Shown here: piece by piece, positions 2,453 through 7,939 of the stretch | How the letters are laid out: every line of letters begins with the position of its first letter | Numbering within the stretch: position 1 is the stretch's first letter | Source: Candidatus Saccharimonadales bacterium | GTDB taxonomy: Bacteria; Patescibacteriota; Saccharimonadia; Saccharimonadales; JAUPVS01 | NCBI GenBank assembly: GCA_039935435.1 | Contig: JBDTKG010000102.1 | Coordinates: 1-26,966 of the forward strand | Reading direction: 5' to 3' | Length of the DNA: 26,966 nt | Notes under the pieces: generated by a model | The model's database searches: none | What the model was told of the DNA's origin: nothing | The model's input: only the letters and a program-made list of their open reading frames with translations | Translations under genes and position numbers: made by a program

Positions 2453-2941
2453 ATGACAACTGAGCAGTTAGAGACAAGTCTCAACAGGGTCCACGAGTGG
2501 ATTCGTGCGGCCGACCAAAAAGCAAGTATTTTTCTTGCGCTTGTTCTGGGTGGTTTAGCGCTCGGCGGTAATGAGTTTCTTGGCTATTTATCCACTATAT
2601 TTAATGATAAGCCAGTTTGGCTAGCTACTGTTTTAATGTTGAGCACCGTGATTTTGGTATGGTCTATCACGGAAGCACTGTTTATCATTAAACCCTCAGT
2701 TGCAAATAACGCCAAGTCATTCACATACTTCGGGCATATATCGCAGATATCTTTGAGTGAGTACCGAACAATAGTTACTGAGGTGAGCAACATAAAGTAC
2801 AAGGATGAGCTCATAGAACAAATTCACACATCTTCAAAAATTGCTCGTAAGAAACATGAACAATTGGCAGAAGCCGTGAAACTATTTTGCTTATATGTTC
2901 TAGTTATGGCAGCGATAATCGGACTATCTTATGTCACTTAA
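2453..2941 (+). CDS. pycTM: Pycsar transmembrane effector (PycTM / DUF5706-like)
   Basis: WIRAADQKAS, SFTYFGHI and QIHTSSKIARKK motifs with 2+1 TM segments. Overlaps the cyclase gene by 11 nt. Confidence 0.8.
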   Translation: MTTEQLETSLNRVHEWIRAADQKASIFLALVLGGLALGGNEFLGYLSTIFNDKPVWLATVLMLSTVILVWSITEALFIIKPSVANNAKSFTYFGHISQISLSEYRTIVTEVSNIKYKDELIEQIHTSSKIARKKHEQLAEAVKLFCLYVLVMAAIIGLSYVT

Positions 2942-3650
2942 AGATGACATTTCCAGTGGAGTCGATAGCTATTACGGAGACACTTACAAAGTCGTTAACG
3001 GCAGATCTGTTCCTTCCGCAGGTAACGTCGGCCTAGGTAAAGTTGGAGTCAGTATCGAGCTAGCAATGATGTTTGTTGATATCAGAGAATCGACTAAAAT
3101 CGTTGACGGTCTGAGACGAATCAGTGCAGCGCGAATGTATAAGGCATTTTTATGGTCGGTGACCAAAATCGTTAAGTACTACGACGGTGAAGTGAAAAGT
3201 TTTAATGGAGATGGTGTGTTAGTGGTGTTTGAAGGCTCTGCCAAGTGTAATCAAGCTGTCAAGGCGGCCTATATGATCAACTGGATGGTTATTAACAGTT
3301 TAAGGCCGCAGATGAACGCCTATTTTAAGAGAAATAATAGTCATGAGGATGTTCACTTCGGTTTCGGGATTGGCATAGACGTTGGCGATATTCTTATTGT
3401 GAGAGCCGGCTTAAAAGGTGCAACGAACAGTGATTTAGTTTGGGCTGGAAATGCAACCAACATCGCCGTCAAACTCAGCGATTTAGGAGATAAAGATAAC
3501 CCAATATACATATCGAATCGTGTGTTTAATCTCCTTAATGATGAACAGAAGCAGTATCTGAATAGAATTAAGGCTATATGGGAGAAGCGTTATTGGACCG
3601 CGAAGGACAACGCTATTATTTACAGAACCAGTTACTGGCGACACCCTTAG
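2931..3650 (+). CDS. pycC: Class III nucleotide cyclase, Pycsar PycC-like
   Basis: MFVDIRESTK, FNGDGVL, GIGIDVG and GNATNIAVKL class III cyclase motifs. Coupled to a PycTM-like gene. Confidence 0.8.
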   Translation: MSLKDDISSGVDSYYGDTYKVVNGRSVPSAGNVGLGKVGVSIELAMMFVDIRESTKIVDGLRRISAARMYKAFLWSVTKIVKYYDGEVKSFNGDGVLVVFEGSAKCNQAVKAAYMINWMVINSLRPQMNAYFKRNNSHEDVHFGFGIGIDVGDILIVRAGLKGATNSDLVWAGNATNIAVKLSDLGDKDNPIYISNRVFNLLNDEQKQYLNRIKAIWEKRYWTAKDNAIIYRTSYWRHP

Positions 3651-4124: not shown

Positions 4125-4952
4125 TTAGTGCAGCAGCAGTTTGCTGGCTTCTATTAAGCCCCAGCCAGCTAAGATTACAAAGGCTAGGCTGCCGGCTAGC
4201 GAGATCAGGGGGTTTTTGACGGCGGCGATGGTCCGCTTGGGCGATAGATATAAGAAGATGTTAAGAATCATGTGCCCAATAAAGACGCCGCTGGCAAAGC
4301 CGACTACATTAACGACGTTAAACAGCGGCACGTAACCGGCAAAGTCATCCAATCCTAGAATGAAGGGGACGGTAAAAGCCATGGCCAGCAGGGCCCAAAA
4401 AGTAGCCCTATGGCCACTGCTCAGCGATGTCGAGGGCAGTAGTTTGCCTAAAAGCGGCTTAAAGGGGCGGTTGATGGTTACTAGGCTGCGCTCAAAACCG
4501 CTGACAAATTTGCCCAGCCAGCTGGGGTAGTGGTGTTTTACTTCCAAAATGTGCTCTAGGCCGTCCTCGGCCAGGCGTAGCAGCACCAGAGCGGCGACGA
4601 CAATCATGATGGCCAGCAGCCAGTGGACCTCTTTAAAACCGGCCCACAGCAGCAGCACGGCCATGGTACCCACGGCGTTGCCCAGAGCCGTACCAACCTC
4701 GATGGCGATGCGACCTTTGAGGCCTTGGTTGTGGCTCATCAGGCGACCAATGAACATGGCAAAGTCAATCGATGTTTTAAGATAAACGGTCAGACCAATC
4801 AAGATGTCGGCAATTTGCCAGCGAATAGCGATCTTCTGGCTCGAAAAGTGGTTAATAATGACAACTTCGCCCACTACCAAGCCAATCATTGCGGCGCAAG
4901 TTATGGCCGTTAAAGGCAGGGCAATAAGTTGGTTACGAACAGCCTTTTTCAT
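4125..4952 (-). CDS. Polytopic membrane protein, CadD/LysE-superfamily-like; start reassigned to ATG 4952
   Basis: Multiple TM segments. KTSIDF and GLDDFAGYVPLF resemble the duplicated CadD-type motifs. TGtTATTAT sits 6 nt before ATG 4952. Confidence 0.55.
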   Translation of the reverse strand: MKKAVRNQLIALPLTAITCAAMIGLVVGEVVIINHFSSQKIAIRWQIADILIGLTVYLKTSIDFAMFIGRLMSHNQGLKGRIAIEVGTALGNAVGTMAVLLLWAGFKEVHWLLAIMIVVAALVLLRLAEDGLEHILEVKHHYPSWLGKFVSGFERSLVTINRPFKPLLGKLLPSTSLSSGHRATFWALLAMAFTVPFILGLDDFAGYVPLFNVVNVVGFASGVFIGHMILNIFLYLSPKRTIAAVKNPLISLAGSLAFVILAGWGLIEASKLLLH

Positions 4953-4960
4953 CGCCTTAT

Positions 4961-5013
4961 AATAACAGACAGCCAGTGACATTAGAGTGTGCCACACTGA
5001 CTATGGCAATAAA
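4961..5013 (+). repeat. Left copy of a degenerate direct repeat bracketing the DGR module
   Basis: 4961-4999 matches 7849-7887 at 30/39 nt ungapped, including the palindrome AGTGTG-C-CACACT, followed by a shared GGCAATAAA. Confidence 0.65.
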
Positions 5014-5034
5014 CTAGGCCACAGAGTACAAACC

Positions 5035-5994
5035 ATGAGCGATTCGTTAACAACTGACTATATATCTGTGTACCGGGCATGGAAAAACTTCAGAAAATCT
5101 AAGCGAGCCGGCCCCGCCATCGATGAATTTGCATATGATCTGGAAGCAAATCTGGCCCAGCTATCCGCAGAACTGAGCGATGGATCATATCAACATGGTG
5201 GATACCAGGCGGTAGTGTTGCACGAGAAGAAACGACGTGATTTAGCAGTAGCCACAGTCCGCGACCGTGTTGTCCACCGACTGCTCTACGACTACCTAGT
5301 AGCGATTTACGACAAAAAATTTGACCCAGATGTTTGGTCATGCCGCAAGGGCAAGGGATTACATGCTTGCCTAGCAAGAACCCGGAAATTGCTCCAAATG
5401 CACTCTAAGGGGTACGTCTGGCGAGCCGATATCACTAAATTTTATGACAACGTTGGCCACGCTACATTGCGGGGCTGCTTGCAACGGAAGCTAGGCGACG
5501 ATGACAAGGCCATGGCTCTAATGGACGAGATCATAAGCAGCTTCTCGAAGCTAGAAAGAAGCCATAGGGGCATACCTATCGGCAACTTAACTAGCCAAAC
5601 ATTTTCAAATATCTACCTTAACGAGCTTGATCGGTTTATCCGACACCAGATCAAGCCGCTGGCATACGTCAGATACGGTGATGATTTTTGCATATTTTGG
5701 CCAACGCGGCGCGGTGCCCGCATTGTCAGGCAACAGGCCGCTGACTTTCTAGCAAATAATCTAGGGCTCTCACTTAACCCCAAAAACGATGTAGTTGTAG
5801 CGGCCAAGCGGGGTCTAAAGTTTTTGGGTCACAACATCAACAGAGGGCACATAGCTGTAGATACGCACACCACCAAGAGCGTCATTGGTAAGCTCAACCG
5901 GCGCAACGCAGCTAGCTACAGGACGTTGCTGCTAACTCAAGTCCAAAAGGAGAGAATGGACTGGATTTTATTAGAAAAAGATGTTGACGTATAG
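5035..5994 (+). CDS. DGR reverse transcriptase; start ATG 5035 preferred over GTG 4987
   Basis: VRDRVVH, ADITKFYDNV, GIPIGNLTSQ, YVRYGDDF and FLGH motifs. TR/VR pair and avd are adjacent. Confidence 0.95.
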   Translation: MSDSLTTDYISVYRAWKNFRKSKRAGPAIDEFAYDLEANLAQLSAELSDGSYQHGGYQAVVLHEKKRRDLAVATVRDRVVHRLLYDYLVAIYDKKFDPDVWSCRKGKGLHACLARTRKLLQMHSKGYVWRADITKFYDNVGHATLRGCLQRKLGDDDKAMALMDEIISSFSKLERSHRGIPIGNLTSQTFSNIYLNELDRFIRHQIKPLAYVRYGDDFCIFWPTRRGARIVRQQAADFLANNLGLSLNPKNDVVVAAKRGLKFLGHNINRGHIAVDTHTTKSVIGKLNRRNAASYRTLLLTQVQKERMDWILLEKDVDV

Positions 5995-6011
5995 CAAAAA
6001 TACTGTATAAT
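5984..6011 (+). promoter_or_regulatory. Promoter of the DGR target gene, overlapping the RT 3' end
   Basis: TTGACG (5984-5989)-16 nt-TATAAT (6006-6011). SD AGGAG at 6037-6041. Confidence 0.7.
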
Positions 6012-6051
6012 AGGCTTTGAATTTATAGGCAAGTAGAGGAGTGTTAACGAT

Positions 6052-6846
6052 ATGACAATTGAAGGTTTAAGAACGGCTCCGCAACCCAGCGAAGTTGATA
6101 TGAGCGACCTAATTGGCGCTTCTGTAGAAGCCCTGAATGTCCTTGGTTTAGTTGAGGATCGCGATATGGTGACCGAGTCGGTCGCCGCCGAGTTTAAGGC
6201 TCTGGGTCAAGCCGGTCGTACAGGTGAGCCTTACATCCAACTTCCTCGCGGTGTTATTACCTTAGATGACCTTGTACAAGCTTCCGATAATGTTAGCTAC
6301 GCTAACGACAGAAAATATCCCGAATCTTATGTATATCGTGAACTATGGACACCTGGCGTTGGAACCGAAGGCTACAAAGCCGAAGACCTAGACAACCTTA
6401 CGCTCGGCGGCGACGGCAACTTTGTCCCTCACGCTAGGTTGGCCGTTCATGGTCCGGCTAGCGACCAAGAGCCTCTGCTTCATTTTTTGGGCATGCCTTT
6501 TGACGCAAAATCCGTAAAACGGAAGGAGCCAACACAGCTACAGGCCGTTGAAGAGGCAGTGGCTACTTACAGAGCCGAAGGACACAAAGACTTTGCTATG
6601 ACTGCTTTAAACTCTAAAGCCGTGGGCTTTATTGCCCTGACCAGGCGCTTTAAAGGCGAAGCTATGCCAATGACCTGGGGTTTTATGCGCGATGCAACGT
6701 TGCCTCGTACTACTGTGGGCGGCGACTCGGTTGTCGGGTACGTCTGTTCCGTTGGTGACAGGTTCAACCTGTACAGGTCTCGCGGTTACGCGCGCTCGGA
6801 CGATGGCGTTGGTCTCTCGGTGGGGCCAAAAGATCTTAAATCTTAA
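6052..6846 (+). CDS. DGR target (variable) protein, 264 aa, unknown function
   Basis: C-terminal codons 221-257 are the VR. No signal peptide or TM segment is evident. Confidence 0.9.
   Translation: MTIEGLRTAPQPSEVDMSDLIGASVEALNVLGLVEDRDMVTESVAAEFKALGQAGRTGEPYIQLPRGVITLDDLVQASDNVSYANDRKYPESYVYRELWTPGVGTEGYKAEDLDNLTLGGDGNFVPHARLAVHGPASDQEPLLHFLGMPFDAKSVKRKEPTQLQAVEEAVATYRAEGHKDFAMTALNSKAVGFIALTRRFKGEAMPMTWGFMRDATLPRTTVGGDSVVGYVCSVGDRFNLYRSRGYARSDDGVGLSVGPKDLKS
6712..6822 (+). repeat. DGR variable repeat (VR)
   Basis: 111 nt aligned to TR without gaps. 15 mismatches, all at TR adenines (8 A>G, 5 A>T, 2 A>C). Confidence 0.97.
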
Positions 6847-6877
6847 GCTTCCTAATTTCTTCTCTTCTTTTTCTTTC

Positions 6878-6886
6878 TGCTAAAAT
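6878..6886 (+). promoter_or_regulatory. Putative extended -10 promoter for the TR RNA
   Basis: TGcTAAAAT about 170 nt upstream of TR on the strand TR must be transcribed from. Confidence 0.45.
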
Positions 6887-7058
6887 ACAACTTGTCCATT
6901 TTGTATCGTTTTAGATAGGCAAAGTCTGGCGCAATTGCATTGCAGGTTTTAGCTAGCGATCAAAAGCGAACACAATTTGCCCCACGTGCGTCTCGCGCAA
7001 ACTAACTGACGTTTCGGCTATTTGCGAGTAGTCTGAATCCTGGAGTGCTAGAGAACAA

Positions 7059-7169
7059 ACTGTGGACGGCGACTCGGTTGTCGGGAACGTCAATTCCAAT
7101 GGTGACAAGTTCAACCTGAACAGGTCTAACGGTAACGCGAACTCGAACAATGGCGTTGGTCTCTCGGTG
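7059..7169 (+). ncRNA. DGR template repeat (TR)
   Basis: Non-coding copy of VR with 27 adenines and 10 AAY codons in the target frame. It ends in an adenine-free stretch shared with VR, then diverges (CGGCAA vs GGGCCA, IMH*/IMH-like). Confidence 0.95.
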
Positions 7170-7194
7170 CGGCAATAATGTTTAATCGGACAAT

Positions 7195-7536
7195 TTACTG
7201 CTGTGTGCTTTTACGCCAACCGCCAAGCATACGACCAATTTCTACGACTTTGGCTTGTAGTTGGTGCAGCGTTGTTTCGTTGGCTAGCTTACCGTTTAGC
7301 AGTATGCGCAGTTGAAACTGCACAATTTCGGCTTGCGCTGATGCTTTAATTAGGTACGGGCCTTTGTGGGCCGTGGGTGCATATTTGGCCATGATTAGCA
7401 GCTCCAACAGCTGTAGGACGCTGTTTTCTAGCCGCCTACCAATCGTTTGGCGTTGCAGCGCCGGTAGCTTATTGGTTATTTTGGAGACATTTTCGTATAA
7501 CTCCTGAGTTCTGTTGATAACTGGCAGTTCCTGCAT
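7195..7536 (-). CDS. avd: DGR accessory variability determinant (Avd-like four-helix bundle)
   Basis: About 113 aa, helical, ends EIGRMLGGW. Next to TR. ATG 7536 is 6 nt after TATACT. Confidence 0.9.
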   Translation of the reverse strand: MQELPVINRTQELYENVSKITNKLPALQRQTIGRRLENSVLQLLELLIMAKYAPTAHKGPYLIKASAQAEIVQFQLRILLNGKLANETTLHQLQAKVVEIGRMLGGWRKSTQQ

Positions 7537-7563
7537 CACCGCAGTATAGCTTAAAATGAACGT
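7537..7563. promoter_or_regulatory. 27-bp bidirectional leaderless promoter for avd and the DUF2188-like gene
   Basis: TATACT (minus, 7543-7548) and TAAAAT (plus, 7552-7557) each lie 6 nt from an ATG. Confidence 0.65.
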
Positions 7564-7830
7564 ATGGCAGTTTCAATTTTAACGTTAGCTAAGCCGGCTC
7601 GAACCAATAAGCAGATCCAGGAGTATCTGTCGGCTGTTGATAGGGGATTGACGGGCCGTTTTGTCATGCAAAGCGGCAAGGGATGGTATGTCCGCAAGCC
7701 TGATACGCTTAGAGGGAGATTGTTTGCTACCAAAGCCAAGGCTATTTCTAAGGCTCACCAAGAACTGGCTAAGTCAAAAGGCGAACTTTTCATCTTTGAT
7801 AAAAACGGCCAGCTGATAGGCCGACAGTAG
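7564..7830 (+). CDS. DUF2188-like small basic protein
   Basis: GWYVRK...F.TKAKAI..A......ELFIFDKNGQL pattern, recalled as DUF2188. Confidence 0.6.
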   Translation: MAVSILTLAKPARTNKQIQEYLSAVDRGLTGRFVMQSGKGWYVRKPDTLRGRLFATKAKAISKAHQELAKSKGELFIFDKNGQLIGRQ

Positions 7831-7848
7831 ACGCTTCGTTGCTTCATA

Positions 7849-7902
7849 AATAATAGACCGCCGTTGTCAGCTGAGTGTGGCACACTGGCCTGGGGCAATA
7901 AA
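7849..7902 (+). repeat. Right copy of the degenerate direct repeat bracketing the DGR module
   Basis: AATAATAGACCGCC...GAGTGTG-G-CACACTG...GGCAATAAA, compare 4961-5013. Confidence 0.65.
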
Positions 7903-7939
7903 AAAGACCATCGGCTTATTAAACTGAATGATCTGGTTG

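Follow-up and report, generated by a model that had tools for sequence, protein, structure and literature searches.

We analysed a window of 26,966 bp, which is the entire contig JBDTKG010000102.1 from the genome of a Candidatus Saccharimonadales bacterium, an ultra-small soil organism (624-kb assembly, 84% complete, genome of about 0.6 Mb). In particular, we followed up the region from position 5035 to position 7536, in which an earlier reading made from the letters of the DNA alone (here called the sequence-only reading) had placed a complete diversity-generating retroelement (DGR). These limits are sound, with 5035 and 7536 being the first positions of the ATG codons of the reverse transcriptase (RT) gene and of avd, respectively. 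The main parts of the element lie along the window as follows.

5035-5994, plus strand: DGR RT gene, 319 residues from the ATG at 5035; the longest open reading frame (ORF) begins at a GTG at 4987
6052-6846, plus strand: target (variable protein) gene, 264 residues; an N-terminal helical hairpin followed by a predicted C-type-lectin-like domain at about residues 53-260
6712-6822, plus strand: variable repeat (VR), residues 221-257 of the 264-residue target, in frame 0 of the ORF 6052-6846
7059-7169, plus strand: template repeat (TR), 27 adenines in 111 nt; the segment IMH* at its end extends to 7178
7195-7536, minus strand: avd, intact and antisense to the TR, with 113 residues counted from the ATG at 7536

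Parts of the retroelement

The VR and the TR are contained in a 120-nt direct repeat whose copies, at 6712-6831 and 7059-7178, are offset by 347 nt. Within 6712-6822 the copies differ at 15 positions, and at every one of these it is the downstream copy that has an A (hypergeometric chance p = 1.3e-11, given 27 A in 111 nt). Ten codons of the TR are of the form AAY, and nine of them are changed in the VR. The counts that the sequence-only reading had given, 15 of 15 differences at TR adenines and nine of ten AAY codons changed, were thus the same when we recounted them, and the ceilings that it had derived, 4^27 (about 1.8e16) DNA variants and 15^10 (about 5.8e11) peptides, are correct; the peptide ceiling is about 5.8e15 when all 16 adenine-bearing codons are counted. 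The adenines of the TR all occupy codon positions 1 or 2, the third position being free of adenine, and one codon, an AAG (VR position 6760), is able to mutate to TAG. Note that the three further mismatches beyond 6822 (at 6823, 6827, and 6829) are not adenine mutagenesis; they are differences between the initiation of mutagenic homing (IMH) segment of the VR and the IMH* of the TR. A genome-wide search for remote VRs, a step that the sequence-only reading had proposed, was run with the TR as DNA query and with a profile of the target family, and in the 624-kb, 84%-complete assembly it returned no VR besides the known VR and TR.

The RT matches Pfam RVT_1 (8e-17), and its open ORF holds both of the motifs previously read there, namely GIPIGNLTSQ, in which the DGR signature [I/V/L]GxxxSQ takes the form IGNLTSQ, and YGDD. 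Its closest relative of solved structure is chain 8ub7_A (1e-29, compared to about 1e-17 for the RTs of group II introns and retrons), which we identify as the Bordetella bRT because the numbering of the chain (I181, Q187) matches that of bRT. Residues R68, I182, and Q188 of the window RT align with R74, I181, and Q187 of bRT, and YGDD aligns with YMDD; R74 and I181 of bRT are the two residues shown to promote adenine mutagenesis (PMC7826257). Homologues of the RT align from residue 14-21 of the long ORF, and this homology, together with the comparison to an empty site described below, argues that the RT starts at the ATG at 5035 and the neighbouring membrane-protein gene at 4952; with these starts the two genes do not overlap. 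The product of avd matches Pfam bAvd at 3.5e-13, which is above the Pfam cut-off, and NCBIfam DivGenRetAVD at 7e-18 with 64.8 bits, which is below the cut-off of 80 for that model. The gene is 65-93% identical in relatives, and its stop codon, at 7195-7197 on the minus strand, lies close to the end of the TR region at 7178. At the 3' end of the VR there are two further elements.

6803-6831, plus strand: IMH-like segment that closes the VR; its first 20 nt match the TR exactly, after which GGGGCCAAA stands in place of the CGGCAATAA of the TR
6832-6850, plus strand: hairpin (8-bp stem, 3-nt loop) that immediately follows the IMH, includes the stop codon of the target gene, and precedes a T-rich run

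The difference between GGGGCC in the VR and NGGCAA in the TR is kept in six loci, and in an RNAalifold analysis of six loci two pairs of the hairpin show compensatory changes. By analogy, the IMH and the hairpin would have a role in homing; judged from its sequence, the hairpin could equally be the terminator of the target gene.

The statement that RT, Avd, TR, and VR are all present at this locus is therefore borne out, with every defining part of a DGR intact. Because the RT signature, the adenine-specific TR/VR pair, Avd, an AAY-rich VR at the 3' end of its gene, and the IMH/IMH* pair with its hairpin all occur together, we regard it as very probable that this is a genuine, complete, and intact DGR, of the type found in Patescibacteria (the candidate phyla radiation, CPR), in the genome of a member of the Saccharibacteria. 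That DGRs are known in CPR, as had been remarked, agrees with Wu et al. 2018 (PMC5758913) and Roux et al. 2021 (PMC8144416). The cassette is a new member of this already known CPR type, with a rearranged gene order that is typical of its lineage.

Gene order, target family, and template RNA

The order in the window is RT-target-leader-TR-(avd antisense), the RT gene being upstream of, and co-directional with, the target gene. Seven further cassettes have the same full order (loci L006, L007, L016, L017, L050, L051, and L062 of our comparison), and in L010 and L012 at least the RT followed by the target is found. The 16 more distant RT relatives that we examined have instead the order target-TR-(avd)-RT, which is architecture B3, the TR-(avd)-RT arrangement that Wu et al. 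2018 (PMC5758913) report for 90% of their CPR set. Since the RT-first cassettes form one clade of the RT tree (10 rows, support 97/98) that is nested among B3 cassettes, the RT-first order is a derived, lineage-typical variant marking one RT subclade, and not a singular one. The sequence-only reading had singled out the gene order and the cargo as the notable parts of the element. The RT-first order does differ from B3, but both points are less unusual than had been implied, because in CPR it is standard for the TR to be followed by an antisense avd, because the RT-first order is common to the whole RT subclade, and because a small target in which no domain or membrane segment can be recognised is typical for CPR (Roux et al. 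2021, PMC8144416), a description with which the features of the target in the window agree.

The closest known systems are the CPR DGRs of architecture B3 and, as a probable placement, DGR clade 2 of Roux et al. 2021 (PMC8144416). The element shares with the B3 DGRs of CPR the succession of target with VR, TR, and an avd that comes straight after the TR and is encoded on the opposite strand, as well as the small target devoid of a domain or membrane segment and the ultra-small host. It differs from them in the place of the RT gene, which in B3 is downstream of, and divergent from, avd; in the window it is upstream of the target and co-directional with it, and a DUF2188 gene sits where the RT of a B3 element would be. 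In five relatives we compared each TR with its own VR, and 15/15, 23/25, 22/23, 17/18, and 15/16 of the mismatches fall on adenines. L006 has decayed: the frame of its RT is broken, its avd is split, and in its degraded TR only 24 of 40 mismatches are at adenines. Across the order the distribution of the DGR is patchy: among 401 sampled genomes the RT has a relative in 51 and the target family is present in 9, and neither was found in 8 other genomes of the same family as the host.

The target itself has no Pfam or NCBIfam match. A database search gave 58 homologues of about 264 residues each, and the few that are named are hypothetical proteins of Saccharimonadales or Saccharibacteria metagenome-assembled genomes. 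In none of 56 members does a hydrophobic window of 19 residues reach 1.6, and the target, as judged from its sequence, is apparently a non-secreted protein that has neither a signal peptide nor a membrane helix. Column entropy over 56 homologues is 2.77 bits at TR-adenine codons (defined by an A at codon position 1 or 2 of the TR counterpart), 0.71 bits at the remaining codons of the VR, and 1.38 bits outside the VR. Because the family varies at the codons that carry TR adenines, it is as a whole a DGR scaffold.

An AlphaFold2 model of the target made with the family alignment has a predicted local distance difference test (pLDDT) score of 91 and a predicted template modelling (pTM) score of 0.90. 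A search of AFDB clusters with the target found only unnamed CPR proteins. When compared by VIA-align to 48,161 chains, all matches with Z>=5 (Z 5-7) were essentially C-type-lectin folds or folds like that of formylglycine-generating enzyme (FGE), over residues of about 53-260, and they included the solved DGR variable proteins TvpA (2y3c), TaqVP (5vf4), and Mtd (1yu0). The target shares with these three proteins the predicted C-type-lectin/FGE-like fold and the position of the variable residues in the C-terminal strands; it differs in that identity is only 8-11% at Z 5-6 and in that its N-terminal helical hairpin has no counterpart. Counting against the assignment, a Foldseek search of the model against the PDB gave nothing significant, and Z values of only 5-7 are in a range that the tool warns can be unspecific. 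Because the match scores are individually weak, we assign the predicted C-type-lectin-like fold with moderate confidence. The common VR classes of C-type-lectin variable proteins are tryptophan- and arginine-rich, a pattern to be set against the ...GVGLSVG with which the VR in the window ends.

Some members of the target family stand alone. The orphan genes at L004:6001-6801, L005:6001-6798, and L008:5001-5798 lie apart from any TR, avd, or RT (none within 5-6 kb); in the assembly of L004 no relative of the RT was found at all, and the genome of L005 has only a distant one (34% identical), on another contig. L019 holds two paralogous targets on one contig (L019:1-792 and L019:1771-2574), with an IS1595 transposase gene between them where the RT would be expected. 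Only the second of these paralogues has an adenine-biased TR, and the 3' ends of the two are 86% identical with no adenine bias.

Between the target gene and the TR lie a candidate promoter and a structured RNA.

6878-6886, plus strand: extended -10 element TGCTAAAAT, candidate promoter of the TR RNA
6893-7058, plus strand: structured leader RNA of 165 nt and two domains, directly 5' of the TR

Of six closely related loci, five keep the element TGCTAAAAT, the exception being L007 with GGTAGAAT; the sequence of the element suggests that it may serve as the promoter of the TR RNA, with transcription starting near 6893. The helices of the leader are at 6899-6965 and 6986-7056, and the linker carries GCCCCACGTG (6979-6988), the GCCCC core of which is invariant. 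Over ten loci, 32 of the 42 leader pairs show compensatory changes, and 90% of the leader cells are paired, compared to 37-42% with slid partners; none of 500 shuffles reached this value. A covariance model of the leader (R1) finds L006, a locus on which it was not trained, at 124 bits. Beyond the subclade, the matches of R1, which lie in B3-type loci and next to one orphan target, are only weak (E 0.4-0.7), and the leader has no Rfam match at E<=1.

On the other side of the TR, between its end and the stop codon of avd, L051 carries an insertion of about 130 nt (L051:6695-6830) and L014 one of about 40 nt with a perfect palindrome (L014:735-780), which argues that in this clade the spacing downstream of the TR is not under constraint. 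(The 3' end of avd is strongly conserved; we considered an overlapping RNA element, equivalent to the Bordetella spacer, as the reason for this, and do not claim one. The use of identical codons in avd rises modestly, from about 0.37 to 0.5-0.58, over the last 24 codons; variation of avd in more distant relatives has a 3-nt period, as plain protein constraint predicts; and covariation did not support a structure there in RNAalifold, with a value of +0.25 and three of 27 pairs compensatory.)

Insertion site and neighbouring features

The cassette is part of a larger block, the features of which are listed here together with promoter-like sites and a site within the RT gene.

4953-7939, strand not assigned: inserted block of about 3 kb that holds RT, target, leader, TR, avd, and the DUF2188 gene
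4961-4999, strand not assigned: left direct repeat, 39 nt, 77% identical to the right copy, with the palindromic core AGTGTGSCACACT
7849-7887, strand not assigned: right direct repeat, 39 nt, the same repeat as at 4961-4999
7564-7830, plus strand: DUF2188 gene (Pfam DUF2188, 4e-8), inside the inserted block and divergent from avd
5984-6011, plus strand: promoter-like site before the target gene, TTGACG-16-TATAAT, a consensus match only (11/12)
7543-7570, minus strand: promoter-like site before avd, CTGCCA-16-TATACT, a consensus match only
5548-5568, plus strand: repeat-equivalent site just 5' of the GIPIGNLTSQ codons, a single GCCA plus AGAAAGAA, with the gene in frame

In G236 (L076), a genome of the same family, the corresponding site is empty: the 3' end of tRNA-Phe is 24 nt from the ATG of the membrane-protein gene (L076:5904-5992), and the order tRNA-Ala ... 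tRNA-Phe, membrane protein, tRNA-Gly is kept together with two further flanking genes. The cassette and the DUF2188 gene are thus an insertion beside tRNA-Phe. No recombinase gene is present inside the block 4953-7939. The DUF2188 gene is absent beside avd in L007 and in L016-L019, and because it is missing from this place in other cassettes of the target family we rejected the idea that it is a conserved accessory of the DGR. In another genome, a copy that is 77% identical (L052:481-726) has an unrelated B3-type DGR at a distance of about 3 kb.

In 16 of the 22 RT loci of the clade to which the window RT belongs (21 rows of the tree and the fragment L010), a perfect tandem repeat is found exactly 5' of the GIPIGNLTSQ codons. 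The unit is GTCA, GACA, GCCA, GCAA, CAGA, or a 7-mer, present in 5 to about 18 copies (L006:5470-5511, L010:145-198, L016:475-543, and L052:4990-5040, for example, and also in L053, L062, and L065-L069). Of these 16 RT genes, four keep the reading frame and ten are out of it, and in the other two an assembly gap falls within the gene; several further RT matches are split across contig ends at the same point of the gene. Judged from these sequences, the repeat in the relatives looks like slipped-strand phase variation, which would act as an on/off switch of the retroelement. No paper describing repeat-based phase variation of a DGR RT was found in a literature search. The RT of the window has no tandem repeat tract at 5548-5568 and is in frame.

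(Elsewhere in the window, a stand-alone class III nucleotide cyclase at 2453-3650, with a Pfam Guanylate_cyc match of 1.4e-6, overlaps an upstream ORF of 162 residues and lies downstream of tRNA-Gly.)

Proposed working, alternatives, and significance

In the working that we propose for the element, an RNA would start near 6893 from the extended -10 promoter and would carry the 165-nt structured leader and then the 111-nt TR before running on into the antisense of avd. A complex of RT and Avd would copy this template into complementary DNA (cDNA), misincorporating opposite adenines, and the cDNA would replace the VR at the 3' end of the target gene, with the IMH segment (6803-6831) and the hairpin beside it (6832-6850) guiding the homing. 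The outcome would be the randomisation of 16 codons, ten of them AAY, in the last beta-strands of the C-type-lectin-like domain. The homing steps are taken by analogy from Bordetella phage BPP-1, and we infer the start of transcription, the role of the leader, activity at the present day, and the binding of a ligand by the target. With BPP-1 (mtd-avd-TR-Sp-brt) the element shares the adenine-specific transfer from TR to VR, an RT with IGxxxSQ and the equivalents of R74 and I181, Avd, and a VR at the C-terminus of a protein with a predicted C-type-lectin fold, the VR ending in an IMH-like segment followed by a hairpin. It differs from BPP-1, which is phage-borne, in being cellular, in having avd antisense, and in having a conserved structured RNA 5' of the TR; in BPP-1 the TR is followed on its 3' side by the essential spacer of 140 nt, which contains the priming adenosine Sp A56 (PMC6182149). 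Because a covarying structure is found 5' of the TR and none 3' of it, the leader may be the part of the template RNA that is bound by RT and Avd. Somewhat more tentatively, it is possible that this leader recruits RT-Avd and perhaps primes the cDNA, and that the 3-kb cassette is a mobile unit bracketed by the repeats and devoid of a recombinase of its own.

Several observations weigh against this working. On the 3' side of the TR, where the DNA is variable in length and shows no covariation, no conserved structure was found, and for this reason the priming mechanism of Bordetella is not simply transferable. In addition, a contig from the source sample spans 5511-7900 unbroken through the VR at about 10x with no differences. 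Furthermore, in a second sample of the same study a contig spanning 6625-6868, at about 3.4x, has an identical VR. These data come from assembled Logan contigs, which hide minority variants. In two samples of another study related strains are present, and their contigs break or drop out around the VR. No current diversification was seen, and contigs of about 3-10x are unable to detect low-frequency variants. The agreement of two samples in the same sequence speaks against the TR/VR pattern being an assembly artefact. The sequence-only reading had called the element apparently exercised. The data bear this out for the past only, the VR having clearly been rewritten from the TR.

The strongest alternative, to which we give a substantial chance that is nonetheless below even, is that the element is intact and quiescent, the VR having been rewritten in the past and being now fixed while the cassette is carried along. 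The identical VR of the two samples and the contig unbroken through it speak for quiescence, as do related loci at every stage of decay, from the degraded L006 to L004, L005, and L008, whose targets lie away from any TR, avd, or RT. On the other hand, all parts are intact here: the ORF of the RT is uninterrupted and retains the residues for catalysis and those linked to mutagenesis, none of the ten AAY codons of the TR has been lost, and the IMH/IMH* pair is preserved. In addition, the depth of the contigs is too low for rare variants to be detected. That the cassette belongs instead to a prophage or other virus, with the target as a receptor-binding protein for host switching as in BPP-1, is suggested by a discrete insertion of about 3 kb beside a tRNA gene and between direct repeats. 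We consider this very improbable, as the insertion holds only RT, target, avd, and DUF2188 and no structural or integrase genes of a phage, the flanks consist of cellular genes and tRNAs, and no relative of the target turned up among the 2.9 million viral contigs that were scanned. Finally, the repeat pair might be an ordinary partial duplication of a gene, with an adenine bias that arose by coincidence. All that favours such a duplication is that a repeat exists, and its probability is negligible: the statistics of the 15 mismatches and the comparative data refute it, the same adenine bias recurring independently in five related loci, and a DGR-type RT and Avd adjoin the pair.

DGRs are known to be enriched in CPR, and the element described here adds one more example. 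For the subclade in which the RT gene has come to precede the target, it is a clean and intact copy that can serve as a reference. The target family, with about 58 members and a model at pLDDT 91, could be expressed to ask what variable proteins of CPR that, like these, are apparently not secreted bind to, a question that Roux et al. 2021 leave open. The compact leader-plus-template RNA, supported by covariation, offers a means to test how cDNA synthesis is primed in the DGRs of CPR; if priming is indeed based on the leader, template-primed reverse transcription would be wired differently in these elements than in BPP-1. The empty site in a relative, in turn, means that a minimal DGR cassette can be gained and lost in one piece.

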